NCBI GenBank assembly: GCA_965214705.1
Contig: CBDCCI010000002.1
Location: 448,001 to 512,000 of the forward strand
Reading direction: 5' to 3'
Length of the DNA: 64,000 bases
DNA from: Alphaproteobacteria bacterium
GTDB lineage: Bacteria; Pseudomonadota; Alphaproteobacteria; UBA828
Program-made: the position numbers
Shown: in pieces, positions 30,001 to 63,000 of the stretch
How the letters are laid out: each line of letters starts with the position of its first letter
Position numbering within the stretch: position 1 is the stretch's first letter

Positions 30001-33000
30001 GGCCGGCTGAAGGAAAGGTACAGGCGCGTCCACCGTCAGTACGACATCGAGGTCGAGCCCGGAGAGAAGGGGCGGGCCAGTGCGGTCCGCTGGAGGCGCA
30101 ACGCTCTCCATGCCGAGCGCGACCGCCAGGCGGGCATCTATGTGCTGCGCACCAGCCACGTCGAGTGGGATCTTGAAACCGTGGTCCGAACCTACTGGAA
30201 GCTCACAGAGCTCGAGGCCACCTTCCGCAGCCTGAAATCCGAAATCGGCCTGCGCCCGGTCTGGCACTCCAAGACCTCGCGCATCGCCGCCCACCTGTTC
30301 ATCGCCGTCCTCGCCTACCACGCGGTTCATCTGCTGCGAACCCGTCTGGCGGCGCACGGCTTGCATGACCGCTGGAGTACGATCCGCGACAAGCTCGCGG
30401 GCTGGGTGCGTCTCACCTCCACCATCCGGGAGGTGGACGGAAACCGCATCGTCATCCGCCAGGATGCTCAACCCGACGCCGAGGCGCGCGTCATCGCGCA
30501 GGCGGCGGGCCTCACGGTGGATCCCCACAGGCGCCGGGCGGTGCTCCCGGGAGTGTCGCGATGAGCGCACAAACGTAGTGCCATAATCCCAGATGGGCCA
30601 GAAAATCAGCCCATCATCGCAACTACTTAGGTCGCAGGCGCGCCAAAATGGCAAAGATGGGTTGAACTCGGGCTGCCCCTGGCGATTGATGCCGAAGGAT
30701 TTTCCGCCGCGTTCGACAGTGCAGCGCTATTTTGCCGCGTGGCGGGATGCGGGGCTGTGGTCTGGGATCAATCACGCCTTGCTGACGGCGGCGCGCGAGG
30801 CGGAGGGACGTGAGGCCGCTCCGTCCGCCGGCGTCATCGACAGCAAGTCGGTGAAGAGCACGGAAAGCGGCAGCCCACGGGACTTTGACGCGGGCAAGAA
30901 GGTCAAGGGCCGCAAGCGTCATATCCTCACCGACACCGGCGGCCTGCTGCTCGCCGCCCAGGTCCACGCCGCCGACATTCAGGGCCGCGACGGCGCGCCA
31001 GGCGTGTTCGCGGCCATCCGTCATGCCTTTCCGTCTCTGCGCCATGTCTTCGCCGACGGCGCTTATGCCGCCCCAAACTGGAAGCGGAGCTGAAGCGGAT
31101 CGGTCGATGGACCCTGGAAATTGTCAAGCGCTCGGGCGGCGCACAAGGGTTCGAGATTCTGCCCCGCCGCTGGGTTGTCGAACGCACCTTGGCTTGGTTA
31201 AACCGGAACCGGAGGCTGGCCAAAGACTTCGAGGCGACGATCGCTACTGCCCAGACTTGGCTCTTCATCGCCAGCGTTCAGCTCCTCGCCCGGCGGCTTG
31301 CAAGGCCTTGAAAAACACCAATTCATGTCGGGCCAGACTCTGAGGGGCCGACGCTCAAAATGAATGGCTCAAAAGGCTTATCCCTCTGAGCCACTTGCAG
31401 AATTCCGCCGTTGAGCGGGATTTTGCCGCCATGTGATGCAGATTGTTCTGGGAATCGGGACCGCTCTCTGTTCCTGTCGGGCTTCCGAAGACATCGACAG
31501 GGAGAGCGGTCCCATGTCGCTGGGACAGACACTAACCAGATTCTTGAACTCCCTTCAAGGCGATCTCTTCCCGTGGCTTGAGGAGGAGCTCGGGCCACTC
31601 GGCGAGAGGTATCGGCGCTTCGTCACTGTGCTTGAGTTTGCGCGGGTCGAGAGCTTCCTTCCCCATTTTCATGGCCTGCCCGGTCGGCCGGTCGAGGACC
31701 GTGCGGCGCTGGCGCGCGCCTTCATCGCCAAGGCGGTGTTCGACGTACCCACGACACGCGCGCTGATCGAGCGCCTTGAGGTCGACAAGACGTTGCGCCG
31801 ATTGTGCGGCTGGAACTATGCCGGAGAAGTGCCGAGCGAGGCGACCTTTTCACGGGCCTTCGCCGAGTTCTCCGAGAGTGCCCTGCCCGCACGCCTGCAC
31901 GAGGCGCTGATCAAGCAGACCCTCGGCGACCACTTGGTGGGGCATGTCTCGCGCGATTCGACGGCGGTCGAGGCGCGCGAGAAGCCTCAGCGCAAACGCA
32001 AGAAGGAGAAGCCGAAGCGCAAGCGCGGTCGCCCGCGCAAGGGTGAGGAGCGGCCCAAGGAGCAGCGCCGCGTGGAGCGCCAGCTCGACATGACCCTGCC
32101 GCAGATGCTCGACGATCTGCCCAGAGCCTGCGATGTCGGCACCAAGCGAAACGCCAAGGGCCACACCACGTCACGCACCTGCGGTGCTAACTATCTGACA
32201 AAGGGTCGTTTTCTCTCCTCCACATTGTTGCATCCGGACGGATCCGTCAACTCCCGGTTCCCTGGCTGCAACCGAAACCGGGAGAGGGGAGATGCCCAGA
32301 ACCCACCTTACGGACGCCCGCGTCCGCGCGCTCAAGCCCCGCAAGACCGCATACGACATTCGCGACGGCAAGCTCAGGGGGGTCGGCCTCCGCGTGCTGC
32401 CCTCAGGCGCCAAGCGCTTCTTCGTCCACTGCCAGCATCGTGGCGAGCGCGTCTGGAAGATCATAGGCGATGCCGCCACCATGGATGTCCGCGAGGCGCG
32501 ATCGCGCGCGGTGGCCATGCTCGCCGCGATCCGTCTGGGCGAGGACCCGCCACGCGATCCCGCCGAGACTCGCTTCGAGGCCATCGCCGAGGCCGCGTTC
32601 GAGCGCCGCAGCCGGCTTTGGAAGGCGGGAACGCTGGCGGTGAACCGGGGCTACCTGCGAAGACAGATACTCCCGCACTTCGCGGGACGGCAGATCGCCG
32701 ACATCGACAGCCGGGACGTCGCCAACTGGTTCGCCTCGCTGCGCGCCACCCCGGTCGCCGCAGACCGGTCCATGCCGGTGCTCTCCGTCATCATGCGCGA
32801 GGCCGAGGCGATGAGGCTCAGGCCCGAGGGCTCGAACCCGTGCAAGGGCATCCGGCGCTACCGCCGCAAGGGGCGCGAGCGCTTCCTGTCGGACGATGAG
32901 ATCCGCCGCTTGTCGGCGGCACTCACGGCCCTTGAGGGGCTGCATCCAGAGCAGGTCGCGGTCGTGCGCCTCCTCCTGCTGACCGGATGCCGGAAGGGCG

Positions 33001-60000: not shown

Positions 60001-63000
60001 CCAGAGCCGGCGCGTTCGCCTGCGCGGGGTCTAGCTGCACGTTCAGCCCCGCCGAGATCACGTGGTCGTTGATGGACACGTCCCGGCTCTCCGCGACCTC
60101 GCGGATCCGTTCCCACTCCGATTCCAGGCACGAGATCGCAATCCGCGCTCGGGGCGTCGCGGGCCGCTCCGCTATCACGGGCCGCTCCGGCGCGACTGGA
60201 TCGCGCGCTGTATGAAGGCGATCGCGCCGAACACGGAAAGGTCGGTGCCCGACAGCGACTCCCCCAGCGCGCGGCGCACCCGGTCCATCTCCTCCACCCG
60301 CTCGTACAGGGTCCGCTGCTGTTCTTCCGACAATACCAGCCGCTGCTCGTCCTGGCGCGGCCCGCCCGCGTCCTCGTGCAGCGCGCAGGCGACCAGGTAT
60401 CCCGAGACCGGCATGCCGAGCGCGGTCGCGCGTTCCCTGATCTCGGCCCTCTCGGCCCGGCTGCAGCGCAGCGTGCGGCGCACCACGTTCCCCATCGCTC
60501 ATGGCTGCGGCACGGGGCCGCCCTCGGGATCGGCGCTCACCGAGACCGCGCGCCAGCGTTCGGCGGCGCCCGGATCGGTCAGCCGGTCGAGCTCCGCCTC
60601 CCGGTCGAGCCACGCATCGACGGCATCGCCGAGCGCCTTCCAGCGCTCCTCCAGCCCCATGTCAGCCATGCGCCGTTCCTCGATCTTCGCGAGCAGCAGA
60701 AGCTCGCGTACCGCGCGGCGCAGAACGGTATCGGGCAGCGGGTCTGCCACGGTCGCCCTGTGCACGATGTAGCGCGATATATCCATGCCCGCGTCGGCCG
60801 CGAGTTCGCGGATGCGTGCCCATTCGCTCGCGGTCGCCATCACCGCGTGCTGTGTGCGGCGCTCCGCCGGCCTGCGCCTCATGAGAGCGCCCCGGAGGCA
60901 GTGCGACACCGTGTGGAACCCCTCCCCAAGCCCGCATTCCGGCCACAACCACCTGTATTTCTCCATATAATGTAGATGAGACGCTGCCATCCCGATACGC
61001 CGCGGCACGCCATCGCCTTATCGCCTCCACATAAGCGTGTTTCCACCGCAACTCCTCCGCAACGACAGATCCATCTGCCCAGACATACGCCTTTAGTTCC
61101 CAGATTGCAACTGATCGGTTCGAAGCCTAAAATTTTATATCAGATAAAAAACCGCCACAATCCTCTTGTGAAACGACCCAATCACCTGTAATGTAATACA
61201 TATGCAGGAGAGAAAACGATCCAGTCCACCCCCTGACGCACTCCAGCTATATCGAATTCAGGACCACACCACGTCGTGGATCGGCTACAAGCTGCACATC
61301 GATGCCGCCGATGGCGGCATCCCGGTCAGTTGCATCCTGACGTCTGCCTCGCTGCACGACAGTCAGGTCGCGATCCCGCTGGCGACCATGAGCGCCGAAC
61401 GCGTGACCAATCTGTACGATCTCATGGACTCAGCCTACGACGCGCCTGAGATCGGCTGGCACAGCTATCTGTTGGGCCACGTTCCAATCATCGACATCAA
61501 TCCCCGGGACAGGGGCTTCAAAGAGGACTTGGCGCGGGAGGCCAAGGCGCGGCGCCGTATCGGCCACAGCCACCCGGCGGACGACCGTTACAGCGAACGC
61601 TCGAACGTCGAGCGCATCAATGGCGGGCTGAAGGACAACTGCGGTGGACGCCATGTCCGCGTGCGCGGCCATGCCAAAGTCTACTGCCACGCGATGTTCG
61701 GCATCCTGGCGCTGACGGTAGACCAATTGGTGCGCCTTCTGACTTGAACCTCACTTTCGGTTCTGTCCCTGTCATGCCGGAACACGCCTCCCTCGATGGG
61801 GGCACGGAGAGCCGCGCCCGCATCCCGGCGCCGGGCCACGAATGTGACCGCAACGGCCCTCGCTCGCGACAAATCGGCTCCCCGACGGTGGCCATGCGGC
61901 ATGTCGAACCGTCGATTCGACCGATCGTTCGCGTTACGTTCGACCAACCGCTGCCCTCATATCGAACTCCCGGGATGAACGCACCGTGCCCGAGAGTTTT
62001 GCAAGTGGCTCCCTCTGGCTCCGGTTCCCCAACATGTTGTACCGATCACCTCGGCGGCGGTATCCGACACGGTCGCAGTTCCTTCCGTGTCTCAATGGGT
62101 TGCCCGTAAAGTGCCCAGCGATCCGGCACCCCACATATGGAGAAGCCGGATGTAAGGGGATAAGCCTTTGGCTCAATTCGTGATTCGTAGGCATGGGCTG
62201 CCAGTGCTCGCGGGCACGAGCCTCTCGGGGCATCTGGTCGGCAAATTGAAGCCAAAGACGGCCTCTCGCGAGAGAATTCAACCGCGTCCTCGCACTAATC
62301 GGCTGAATTCCGGCTGCCACAGCGCGATGTTTGGGCCATGCCTACGGATCACGAATTGAGCCAACCGCTTATGCACAATGCTCCGGTGAAACCCACATGC
62401 AGCGTCTGGCGGGCCTGAAATAGCCGACATTGGGGGCAACATCATGTGGCACCGGAGCCAAGTGCATAAGCGGTTTGAGCCAAATGAATACTAACCCGAC
62501 ATTGAGGCGTGTGCGCGTTTTCATTCTACGGGGTGGCCGAGCCGCCGGCCATGAAAGTTTTCGACAGCGCGCCGCTGATCCAGCTAAAGCCCCATGATCG
62601 TGGCGACGGCCTTTCCGACCCTCTCGGCGGCGGCTTCGATGTCGCGGTCGCCGAGGTGGGCGTAGCGGAGCGTCATGCGCGAATTGGAGTGGCCAAGCAG
62701 CCGGGAGACGACAGGGACCGGCACGCCGTTCATCACGGCGTGGCTCGCCACGGTATGGCGCAGGTCGTGAAGGCGCGCGTCCTCGATGCCGGCCTTGCGG
62801 CGGACCCGGTACCAGAGAGAGAGTTCGGACCCGCGCGGCCGCGACGGATCGCGCGGCGAAGGGAACACGAACCGGCTTTCTCCCCGCTTCTGGCGGTCCA
62901 GGATGCTCCTGGCCTGGGCGTTGAGGGGAACCTTTCTCGGCCCGGTCTTGCTGTCGGCCAGCATCAGCGCGCCGCCCTGGACCTCGGACCAGCGGAGCCC

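Follow-up and report, generated by a model that had tools for sequence, protein, structure and literature searches.

How did a 29-kb stretch with CRISPR-Cas genes and two adjacent integrase genes come to lie inside a transposase gene, and what generates the 10-bp repeat at its ends? In the window, by which we mean the whole 64,000-nt stretch analysed here, island I2 occupies positions 32163-61275 of contig C3 numbered within the window, and both its ends and the 10-bp repeat were located. It is confirmed as a real 29-kb mobile island with CRISPR-Cas that carries paired integrases. As the preliminary description had claimed, the direct repeat is perfect, with ACACCACGTC at both boundaries (left copy, the attL core of ACAC plus overlap, at 32163-32172; right copy at 61266-61275; both +), the left end reads ACACC-N7-GCACC-TGC-GGTGC, and the right terminus reads ...GAATTCAGGACC, followed by ACACC. 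The left end (32173-32291, +) contains the palindrome GCACC-TGC-GGTGC at 32175-32187 and an arm, TCGTTTTCTCTCCT, at 32206-32219, and the right end (61009-61265, +) contains the arm AGGAGAGAAAACGA at 61206-61219; the inverted repeat between the ends, given earlier as 16 nt, is present, and 14 nt of it are perfect in I2. The interrupted gene encodes an IS transposase, whose 5' part (31433-32162, +, DUF772) and 3' part (61276-61747, +, DDE_Tnp_1) were recognized with Pfam and are contiguous in two uninterrupted IS copies elsewhere in the genome. When an empty site was defined as flank, one 10-mer and flank with an exact match required, that of I2 was found twice with 25-nt flanks, as reported before, and once with 40-nt flanks. 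I2 itself sits inside J6, a 94-kb island of the same paired-integrase family, of which intB (62584-63735) and the start of intA lie at 62584-64000 (-) and the left end lies about 1 kb past the window (C3:512989). The left module of a further island, I5, which extends beyond the window start, is found at 10467-12893 (-; repeat ACACCTCAAC at 12893-12884, intA 12764-11640, intB 11636-10467).

The genes inside these ends identify I2 as an integrative mobilizable element, with intA-intB on the left and a NikA-like gene and a TrwC relaxase on the right. The TrwC-type (MOBF) relaxase-helicase of 1792 aa (54254-59632, +) has homologues in 10 further delimited islands, and two NikA/MobA-like ribbon-helix-helix genes (60499-61008 and 60175-60495, -) read inward from the right end. 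Homologues of the 169-aa NikA-like gene adjoin the right end in most islands, and a 4.2-kb mini element is reduced to its ends, intAB and the small ribbon-helix-helix gene in a 75-aa version. The core unit would comprise the left end, the intA-intB operon and a small NikA-like ribbon-helix-helix gene before the right end; the TrwC relaxase would be an extra in many copies including I2, and the remaining interior would be cargo. Transfer from cell to cell may combine the element's own relaxase with the conjugation pore of a helper. In I2, the type I CRISPR-Cas system and array described earlier were both found, and the system is of type I-MYXAN. The cas operon (38522-47739, +), assigned by Pfam, consists of cas6 (38522-39478), cas3 (39822-42242), cas8 (Cmx1, 42131-44149), cas7 (44146-45090), cas5 (45009-45773), a cas4-cas1 fusion (45773-47458) and cas2 (47269-47739), among which cas6, cas8, cas5 and cas1 score above the NCBIfam type I-MYXAN cut-offs, and the array (47988-49392, +) has the repeat GTGAAATTGTCAGTGATGCCGAGAGGCGTTGAGCAC with a period of about 71-73 nt. 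Also on the + strand are IS debris with IstB/IS21-like and IS110-like matches in one reading frame (34763-36988) and an NYN-domain protein gene (37314-38450), both recognized by Pfam, a 690-aa ORF that is single-copy in the genome and gave no match in family searches (49315-51387), and a Mutator-family transposase fragment (52185-52640).

Two tyrosine integrase genes open the island: intA (32292-33416, +; 374 aa, with a DUF4102-type arm-binding domain) and intB (33420-34565, +; 381 aa), separated by the 3-nt gap noted previously. In Pfam, each protein is composed of Arm-DNA-bind_3, Phage_int_M and Phage_integrase; the two are paralogous as claimed, and the I2 pair is 41% identical instead of 38%. 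IntA shows the motifs TGCR, DSKTG, HDLRH, LLGH and Y352, and the residues R, K, HxxR, H and Y are complete in both proteins. Is one integrase enough to move the element, with the partner redundant, regulatory, needed for excision only or, for example, a recombinase-like relaxase of the MOB_M type? Lone P4-type integrases do suffice for most islands. Moreover, MOB_M relaxases, distant relatives of tyrosine recombinases, are usually located beside an integrase, according to the part of the preprint bioRxiv 10.64898/2026.01.13.699239 that treats them. We nevertheless regard such an arrangement as unlikely, because neither protein has lost its arm-binding domain or any catalytic residue, I2 already has a TrwC relaxase, and the pair stays together at 76 of the 79 related loci and, among Sphingomonadales, at 31 of 32. 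The trees of the two genes also run parallel across lineages, since the second genes from four lineages group together (support 88, 22 rows) and so, in a separate clade, do the first genes of type 1 and gamma (support 98, 14 rows). Furthermore, a Prevotella copy without the second integrase failed to excise in the experiments described in a section of PMC4755523, where the remaining integrase had also diverged. We infer that IntA and IntB act jointly, and their co-inheritance may predate the divergence of the family's alpha and gamma branches.

The same unit recurs throughout the genome. The left-end pattern gave the 29 exact matches claimed before, against 0 for the reversed control pattern, and 37 matches when relaxed, and of the 10 right-end matches, all recovered, 8 belong to the ...AGGACC type and 2 are degenerate. 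Pairing the 37 left ends found genome-wide with 28 right ends gave 24 islands, rather than the five thought to be delimitable, and 13 left ends stayed unpaired. The roughly 38 gene pairs previously taken as one family turned out to mix two unrelated ones, namely 30 type-1 adjacent pairs (24 with both matches near full length) and about 14-16 type-2 pairs, whose ends differ. Mutual similarity of the 37 left ends starts exactly at ACAC. Even between the most similar copies, the integrase modules are 1.4-3% divergent, and the insertions are therefore not very recent; with such divergence, a drift of about 3% is possible in the repeats. Close relatives with 92.7% identical modules have spacers as unlike as ACGTC and TTAAC. 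Segmental duplication and homologous recombination among IS copies, in place of movement of the elements themselves, could be proposed as the main source of the copies, since many islands lie inside multicopy IS elements, one IS site is common to three left ends, and some ends are partnerless or apparently swapped between replicons. However, the flanks of most left ends are unrelated right up to ACAC, cargo varies from copy to copy, and empty sites precise to the base are present in unique core genes of relatives, which makes this origin highly improbable.

A counterpart of the empty site is known for 14 of the 24 islands. For I1, whose target was correctly named as an IS91-family transposase gene, the 85 exact matches claimed were obtained, and I4 gave 36; further sites within the genome were those of J2, J3, J4, K1, M1 and N9, same-genus genomes supplied those of N1, N2, N3, N6 and N7, the sites of N4 were paralogues with 83% identity, and I3 and I5 had no exact match in the genome. 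In relatives, the N3 site reads GCACC rather than ACACC. The two repeat copies agree at 10/10 positions in 14 islands, 9/10 in 5 and 8/10 in 5, and of ACACC only the first four bases, ACAC, are invariant, position 5 varying in an ACACG subfamily and in one ACACA target. A true target-site duplication, with 10-bp staggered cuts at ACACC+N5, fill-in as by DDE transposons and later mutation of the unlike copies, would explain the perfect repeats in 14 of 24 islands and the single copy of the repeat in each tested empty site, and the divergence of the copies leaves room for some drift. Yet the repeated unit contains tyrosine recombinases only and no transposase, and ACAC is free of mismatches, while all but one of the 15 lie at positions 6-10 (position 5, 1; 6, 4; 7, 6; 8, 2; 10, 2). 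The right copy of N9 differs at two positions from three identical empty sites and equals the spacer at the site of a sister element, and the left copy of N6 has ACACC where the target in relatives has ACACA, so that we give a duplication very little weight.

Instead, the junctions point to exchange between element and target. Seven islands have unlike copies and a known empty site. In each of them, one of the copies is identical or closest to the target and the other is not, and target bases at just one of the junctions fit a conservative tyrosine-recombinase exchange; the non-target spacers TGACG and TCGCG recur in sister elements. N6 has the target ACACATTCAG but the attL copy ACACCATCAG, and repeat position 5 therefore lies within the exchanged stretch; in N7, attL has the base of the target at position 10. 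Several of the seven events are single-base differences, for which later mutation or target polymorphism could account. Strand-biased copy-out/copy-in, as in Tn554 and SE/GInt, would always bring the spacer of the donor's left flank to the right junction and leave the target's at the left, a behaviour so described for SE in part of PMC10214605. This is what attL and attR show in 4/7 islands (N9, N3, N1 and N7), and right-end spacers seem less diverse than left-end spacers in one subfamily; the arrangement is reversed, with attR carrying the target's bases, in the other 3/7 (N2, N4 and N6), no Tfp/GinC or TnpC/Srap gene adjoins the integrases, and the best NCBIfam trio-integrase match of the pair reaches 25.8 bits against a cut-off of 600. 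A strand-biased mode is accordingly improbable to much the same degree as duplication.

The reading we favour, and consider probable, places I2 in a large family of integrative, mobilizable elements that is apparently undescribed and moves by conservative exchange. The islands, ends, gene pair, repeat and cargo of the preliminary description are real and more general than it stated, and the picture is refined here as to repeat origin, ACAC, mobilization genes and host range. Judged from the junction sequences, the 10-bp repeat appears to arise by recombination of an element-borne junction with a similar target, without target-site duplication. Excision would yield a circle with the junction right end-ACAC-N6-left end, and insertion would occur at ACAC plus six bases identical or nearly identical to that junction. 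The data fit an overlap of perhaps 6-8 bp (repeat positions about 4/5 to 10) beside the invariant ACAC, with 1-2 mismatches tolerated. As deduced from the seven natural events only, about 6-8 bp would separate the two strand exchanges, with the left one within ACACC or immediately before it and the right one exactly after repeat position 10. Where element and target are equal, the same 10-mer would stand at both junctions as a 'direct repeat'; with 1-2 differences, a heteroduplex would form, and replication would leave target bases at one junction and element bases at the other. IntA and IntB might act as a heteromer, one on each side of the asymmetric core as in XerC/XerD, and the inverted 14-nt arms are putative arm-type binding sites. 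An outward promoter in the right end may express intA-intB in the circular form only: there is an outward promoter-like site at 61105-61133 in I2 (a weak match, 9/12), a TTGxxx-N17-TGTAnnnT block is conserved there, with TTGAC-N17-TGTA kept in all right-end subfamilies, and no sigma-70-like site was found between the I2 left end and intA. Our own promoter candidate fails the promoter-search rule.

The pair with an ACACC-N5-palindrome left end also occurs in other Alphaproteobacteria and in plasmids of Gammaproteobacteria, which widens the genus-wide range given earlier. P4-type/IntSXT-subgroup integrases of islands and ICEs share the DUF4102 arm-binding, central and catalytic domains, but they act singly and enter tRNA or other conserved genes via long identical cores, whereas the target of the pair here is ACAC plus 6 bp, situated almost anywhere and often within IS transposase genes. 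XerC and XerD are likewise two paralogous tyrosine recombinases that each exchange one strand pair at an asymmetric core, an analogy for the proposed division of labour; Xer proteins lack arm-binding domains and act at chromosomal dif sites, outside mobile elements, and IntA and IntB both score well under the Xer model cut-offs. Elements of the CTnDOT/NBU/Tn916 type also use a tyrosine recombinase, and in them a short conserved motif adjoins a variable overlap, the 'coupling sequence', of about 5 bp; they tolerate heterology and leave the donor's bases at one junction, as proposed here. They have one integrase, from other subfamilies, and their junction sequences are usually unlike, whereas the overlap here matches the target fully in 14/24 islands and with 1-2 differences in the others.

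A literature search found no description of this paired-integrase island family, and its nearest precedents are the multi-integrase transposons Tn554, SE (strand-biased circularizing integrative elements)/GInt and Prevotella MTnPi. In the sections of PMC10214605 and PMC5385486 concerned, Tn554, SE and GInt are transposon-like elements moved by two or more tyrosine recombinases; their asymmetric end motifs are separated by a 6-bp spacer, and donor-derived bases stay at a junction. Their movement depends on a large second recombinase together with Tfp/GinC and/or TnpC/Srap and is strictly strand-biased. In our islands, two similar-sized proteins occur with no such extra gene adjoining and with both junction outcomes (4 vs 3), and a model search of IntA/IntB gave no match to the Tn554/SE/GInt sequence families. 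RIT (recombinase in trio) and BIM, as portrayed in an excerpt of PMC3414803, are also clustered tyrosine recombinase genes of Proteobacteria suspected of mobility; RIT has three recombinases, overlapping genes and terminal inverted repeats, and BIM one recombinase and an SMC-like protein. MTnPi1-3 of Prevotella intermedia, compared by description from portions of PMC4755523 and PMC5704250, are mobilizable transposons with a relaxase, two tandem tyrosine integrases and an 11-bp att (10 bp here), and resemble our elements in being integrative, in several copies per genome and of low target specificity. Their integrases have no significant mutual homology, whereas IntA and IntB are paralogues with DUF4102 arm domains; their hosts are Bacteroidota rather than Proteobacteria, and they reach 2-6 copies per genome (PMC5704250) compared with about 37 left ends here.

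The paired-integrase finding is real and larger than first reported: these islands are probably mobilizable elements moved by more than one tyrosine recombinase, and their ends, empty sites, family, nesting, cargo and wide distribution are established. In the CRISPR-Cas-bearing island I2, the 10-bp repeat ACACCACGTC lies at both ends (window 32163-32172 and 61266-61275), and the DNA outside the two copies is a single IS transposase gene, split into a DUF772 part on the left (31433-32162) and a DDE_Tnp_1 part on the right (61276-61747). The ends are exact to the base, because flank, one 10-mer and flank exist uninterrupted elsewhere in the genome, with two exact empty sites when 25-nt flanks are used and one with 40-nt flanks. 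Inside the left copy, A-C-GCACC-TGC-GGTGC-TAAC comes next, and the sequence directly before the right copy is ...GAATTCAGGACC. The two integrase genes, intA (32292-33416, 374 aa) and intB (33420-34565, 381 aa), are separated by 3 nt. Both products carry an N-terminal DUF4102/Arm-DNA-bind_3 domain (PF13356), Phage_int_M (PF22022) and Phage_integrase (PF00589); they are 41% identical across the whole length, and the catalytic R-K-HxxR-H/W-Y set is complete in each (TGCR, DSKTG, HDLRH, LLGH and Y aligned). Thus the repeat at 32163 and 61266, the doubly represented empty site and the tandem pair with its 3-nt gap, all put forward in the preliminary description, were recovered in full.

The two ends share a 14-nt perfect inverted repeat, 34-47 nt from the left terminus and 47-60 nt from the right one, which provides putative arm-type sites. 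Scanning for promoters gave no site between the left end of I2 and intA, and one outward site at the right end (61105-61133); an outward-facing TTGAC-N17-TGTAnnnT block, 75-95 nt from the terminus, is kept in all right-end subfamilies. This right-end promoter would drive intAB only after circularization, and expression of the pair would then depend on the circle form. A second element outside the window, at C3:400453, sits in another copy of the IS that harbours I2, with the same flank and the same 10-mer; its IntA is 93% identical to that of I2, its intB is truncated, and no right junction was found for it.

When the whole genome (7.92 Mb, three contigs) was searched by tblastn, 124 IntA and 122 IntB segments were detected. 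Neighbouring IntA-like and IntB-like segments form 30 pairs of the I2 kind (type 1), both segments being near full length in 24. A further 14-16 or so tandem pairs (type 2) are only 31-42% identical to IntA or IntB, have a gap of about 150 nt and possess different ends, built of TACGC repeats. The earlier figure of about 38 pairs therefore described real tandem pairs but lumped two families into one. Upstream of every full type-1 intA, the flanks bear no relation to one another and similarity sets in exactly at ACAC; a relaxed pattern gives 37 left ends, and a strict one 29 versus 0 for its reversed control. Right ends were sought by a downstream match of each left 10-mer and then by blastn with 14 right-end seeds, which yielded 28. 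They fall into subfamilies (...AGGACC, ...TAGTGC, ...AAGTGC, ...AGGTTC, ...TTTGTC, and ...TTTCT with ACACG), all of which end just before ACAC. Left and right pairing delimits 24 islands of 4.2-94 kb, with repeats matching at 10/10 positions in 14, 9/10 in 5 and 8/10 in 5, so that the five islands first proposed are genuine but far from the total; for 13 of the 37 left ends no partner right end was found. By our own arithmetic, a given 10-mer is expected to recur by chance about 0.14 times within 150 kb, and each paired match additionally adjoins a conserved right end.

The targets of the family are IS transposase genes and assorted coding sequences. For example, island I1 lies in an IS91-family transposase gene and I4 in a DDE transposase gene. 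Empty sites within the genome number 85 for I1, 2 for I2, 1 for J2, 2 for J3, 7 for J4, 1 for K1 and 3 for N9, and the one IS site shared by I4 and M1 has 36 empty copies. No empty site of I5 (the island running off the start of the window) or N8 was found in same-genus genomes, where the junction-side flank has no counterpart. The IS91-family element hit by I1 (C1:77000-81000) exists in about 85 identical copies, and a separate tyrosine recombinase gene adjoins its Y2 transposase gene. J2 (C1:360464 region) occupies the first of about 7 repeats in a 12-bp tandem array (ACACCACCCGCG); this array encodes HTTR/DTTR repeats of a coding sequence, and therefore offers several identical target 10-mers side by side. 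Type-2 elements were seen in four cases inside integrase genes of either type (C1:1983034, C1:3009884, C3:225657 and C3:2284790), and they appear to target such genes, since they are inserted right after the codons GACAGMAAGACAGG of the conserved DSKTG motif. Contigs of four public runs were also compared with a 19-kb stretch holding the 13.9-kb island J5; these short metagenome pieces contained no joint at the island ends, and the single weak 'goes back' joint fell 98-168 nt beyond them, which is evidence neither for nor against excision.

The islands are frequently nested. The integrase pair at the right edge of the window belongs to J6, a 94.4-kb island of the same family (C3:418601-512998) with its left end at C3:512989. 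At C3:418601, a 1,502-bp IS splits the right end 8 nt from the terminus; this end matches a sister element up to the IS and then again for the last 18 nt. Because the ends of J6 flank the window, the whole window lies in this island, including I5 and I2, the latter inside an IS; the cargo of J6 also includes polysaccharide-synthesis genes such as rmlA and glycosyltransferases (12989-25237). Further nests are K1 in M1, J1 in J2 and the mini element N5 in I4. One genome can thus gather some three dozen such elements, nested in each other and in IS elements. N5 (C1:3377403-3381557, 4,164 bp), the smallest complete member seen, holds only the ends, intA, intB, one 290-aa cargo ORF and, at the far end, a 75-aa ribbon-helix-helix (RHH) ORF. 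Sequence shared between N5 and its 30-kb sister is confined to 2,389 bp at the left (end, intA and intB) and 518 bp at the right, where the RHH ORF sits, and the minimal unit is therefore the ends, intA, intB and the small RHH gene.

A target-site duplication predicts that both copies of the 10-bp repeat equal the target, and empty sites were accordingly sought for islands with unlike left (attL) and right (attR) copies. The target bases, judged by the spacer that follows ACAC(C), stand at attL in four of the seven such islands. N9 has GCTCG at attL, TCGCG at attR and GCTCG in three paralogous empty sites; N1 has ATCGT, AGCGT and, at five relatives' sites, ATCGT; N3 has GGACG, TGACG and, in two relatives, GCACCGGACG, the relatives' site having G at position 1; and in N7 (ACCAT and ATCAC) attL is nearest to the GCCAT of three relatives. 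In the other three the target bases stand at attR: N2 has GCGCG, TCGCG and TCGCG in five relatives; N4 has ATCGG, ACCGG and ACCGG in three paralogues (83% identity); and N6 has ACACCATCAG, ACACATTCAG and again ACACATTCAG in 3 of 5 relatives. One copy is thus the target's and the other is borne by the element, in either arrangement, and it is established that the repeat is not necessarily copied from the target. The foreign spacers TGACG and TCGCG were also seen at sister elements. A rule in which attR always keeps the spacer of the donor, as in SE and Tn554-like elements, was dropped, as N2, N4 and N6 show the reverse.

The 15 mismatches between copies fall at repeat positions 5, 6, 7, 8 and 10, with none in ACAC; in one subfamily, both copies as well as the empty site read ACACG. 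If the patterns represent heteroduplexes that have segregated, N6 suggests a strand exchange to the left of position 5 and N7 another to the right of position 10. The overlap would then measure 6 to about 8 bp, as estimated from the sequences of seven natural events among which single-base cases could be later mutations; such an overlap is a normal span for tyrosine recombinases. The spacer is probably tested for homology. A much more tentative reading, which we think rather doubtful at present, is that the IntA/IntB elements form an ancient superfamily of 'homology-guided' tyrosine-recombinase transposons across Proteobacteria, in which the pair reads only ACAC, the next six bases are pair-checked against the junction spacer, and the spacer is rewritten at mismatched sites. 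If it were true, the element's own DNA would store the target choice, which would be heritable and subject to drift. These would be natural re-settable integrases favouring harmless landing pads, e.g. multicopy IS genes, and the target of such an integrase could be reset via six bases.

I2 also contains mobilization genes. To the right of a single-copy 690-aa ORF (49315-51387), for which no Pfam or NCBIfam match was found, lie a Mutator fragment, a 1792-aa TrwC relaxase-helicase and two NikA/MobA-like genes that point inward from the right end. No mating-pore genes were found among the I2 ORFs scanned. With its own integration/excision module and defined att ends, I2 is more than an integrase-bearing island: the relaxase and the NikA/MobA-like genes give it the parts of an integrative mobilizable element, and it may well be mobilized by them. 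TrwC-type relaxases are encoded in ten other delimited islands as well, and in most islands the right end is preceded, at a distance of a few hundred nt, by a gene homologous to the 169-aa NikA-like one.

Compared with known systems, the islands have several distinct features. First, IntA and IntB share the DUF4102 and Phage_integrase domains and the catalytic set of IntSXT/P4-type integrases, but these act as a single integrase on one conserved gene (for example tRNA, prfC or dusA), whereas a pair with varied targets is found here; the accessible text on the IntSXT subgroup (PMC8138268) does not mention integrase pairs. Second, the Tn554, SE and GInt elements (PMC10214605 and PMC5385486) have a large second recombinase and extra operon genes (Tfp/GinC, TnpC/Srap). 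In contrast, the proteins here are of 374 and 381 aa, and no extra operon gene is conserved, since cargo differs between copies directly after intB and N5 holds only intA, intB, a cargo ORF and the RHH gene. Moreover, their rule that the donor left-flank spacer always appears at the new right junction fits 4 islands and is reversed in 3. Third, RIT elements have three different tyrosine recombinase genes in a row, unlike the two genes here. BIM elements, defined by one recombinase and a conserved SMC-like protein (PMC3414803, which also covers RIT), do not match and were set aside as a precedent, as was the phn island; PMC3318190 and PMC9229058 were judged not relevant. I2 resembles MTnPi1-3 from Prevotella in having two tandem tyrosine integrases, a relaxase and a short att; the likeness is one of plan only. 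MTnPi1-3 carry a tyrosine-integrase duo, their att measures 11 bp, and a copy that lacked the second gene failed to excise (PMC5704250, PMC4755523); MOB_M relaxases are the subject of a preprint (bioRxiv 10.64898/2026.01.13.699239). In the literature accessible to us, we came across no account of DUF4102 integrase pairs that have an ACACC core, and supplementary element or att tables might hold some; NCBIfam has no model naming IntA or IntB.

Of 20 same-genus genomes, 13 have the strict left end; among 20 other genomes sampled, none does. The restriction to the genus claimed earlier thus holds for the strict left end in this 40-genome sample, but the family itself reaches farther. With a looser pattern, for which the reversed control matches in 4 genomes, the 401 genomes of the class (G000 included) yielded one other-family genome with 8 copies and 11 single matches. 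Five copies in the former occupy one site (ACACCACTCA) near the end of a multicopy IS, which also has eight empty copies; candidate right junctions seen in this genome number only two. A protein-based scan of species genomes gave 428 relatives, 80 of which (IntA identity 63-92%) were kept for counting adjacency; several genomes with the family have 3-10 copies each. intB adjoins in 76 of the 79 with room, and the relaxed left end occurs in 61 of the 75 with room, with 49 different spacers among these 61. By record titles, the kept relatives are mostly Alphaproteobacteria and Defluviicoccus metagenome-assembled genomes, together with one complete chromosome from the Paracoccaceae and with bins that bear a Gammaproteobacteria or Chloroflexota label; the Chloroflexota assignment could be a binning error.

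More distant pairs (about 40% identity), annotated merely as 'site-specific integrase', are carried on plasmids of Shewanella, Novosphingobium, Vibrio, Aliivibrio, Photobacterium and Leisingera. Plasmid records were used for these, and a search of genome contigs with a Shewanella-type query returned one locus. All 30 Sphingomonadales loci for which the upstream DNA suffices have a conserved stretch that opens 179-262 nt ahead of the first gene, with GCACACC, 5 further bases and then a palindrome. ACACC-CCAYG-palindrome is found at -149 to -168 in Shewanella (3 records), Aliivibrio and Photobacterium, and it was not detected within 320 nt in Vibrio europaeus and Paracoccus denitrificans or within the 217 nt of upstream DNA in Leisingera. 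The second gene is larger (414-511 aa) in the Sphingomonadales and gamma relatives. In a quick maximum-likelihood tree built from tblastn segments, a single clade (22 rows, SH-aLRT 88) unites the second genes of four kinds of pair (type-1, gamma, Sphingomonadales and Leisingera), and a separate one (14 rows, SH-aLRT 98) unites type-1 and gamma first genes. As first and second genes form separate clades across lineages, the pair is old and inherited as a unit. This co-inheritance is the main, albeit indirect, argument that both proteins are needed, and IntA and IntB probably act as a heteromer. In the same tree, type-2 pairs from this genome fall together with single integrases and look like a separate duplication. 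We believe that a paralogous arm-binding integrase pair can be a tractable system for studying the division of strand exchanges in heteromeric tyrosine recombinases. In addition, islands that databases call just 'site-specific integrase' can now be described by exact ends and a core sequence, together with a crossover model that is open to testing, and in many Alpha- and Gammaproteobacteria the ACAC rule allows them to be delimited automatically.

Defence systems are among the cargo that the islands transport. The complete type I CRISPR-Cas system announced for I2 was borne out and is of type I-MYXAN: the set comprises cas6, cas3, cas8/Cmx1, cas7/DevR, cas5/Cmx5, a cas4-cas1 fusion and cas2, with type I-MYXAN models above their NCBIfam cut-offs for cas6, cas8, cas5 and cas1 (TIGR02807, TIGR03485/6, TIGR02586 and TIGR03983), and the array (47988-49392) is directly followed by the 690-aa ORF. 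IS debris and an NYN-domain gene are also part of the I2 cargo. The cargo of I5 (69-6232) includes two large anti-phage-associated-like genes, one of DUF1156 type and one encoding an SNF2/phospholipase-D-like helicase, both scoring well below NCBIfam cut-offs. Paired-integrase elements may commonly carry defence genes. On the Novosphingobium sp. P6W plasmid pP6W1, the distant pair is followed, according to the record annotation, by a nucleotidyltransferase/HEPN-domain gene and the antiviral reverse transcriptase Drt3b.
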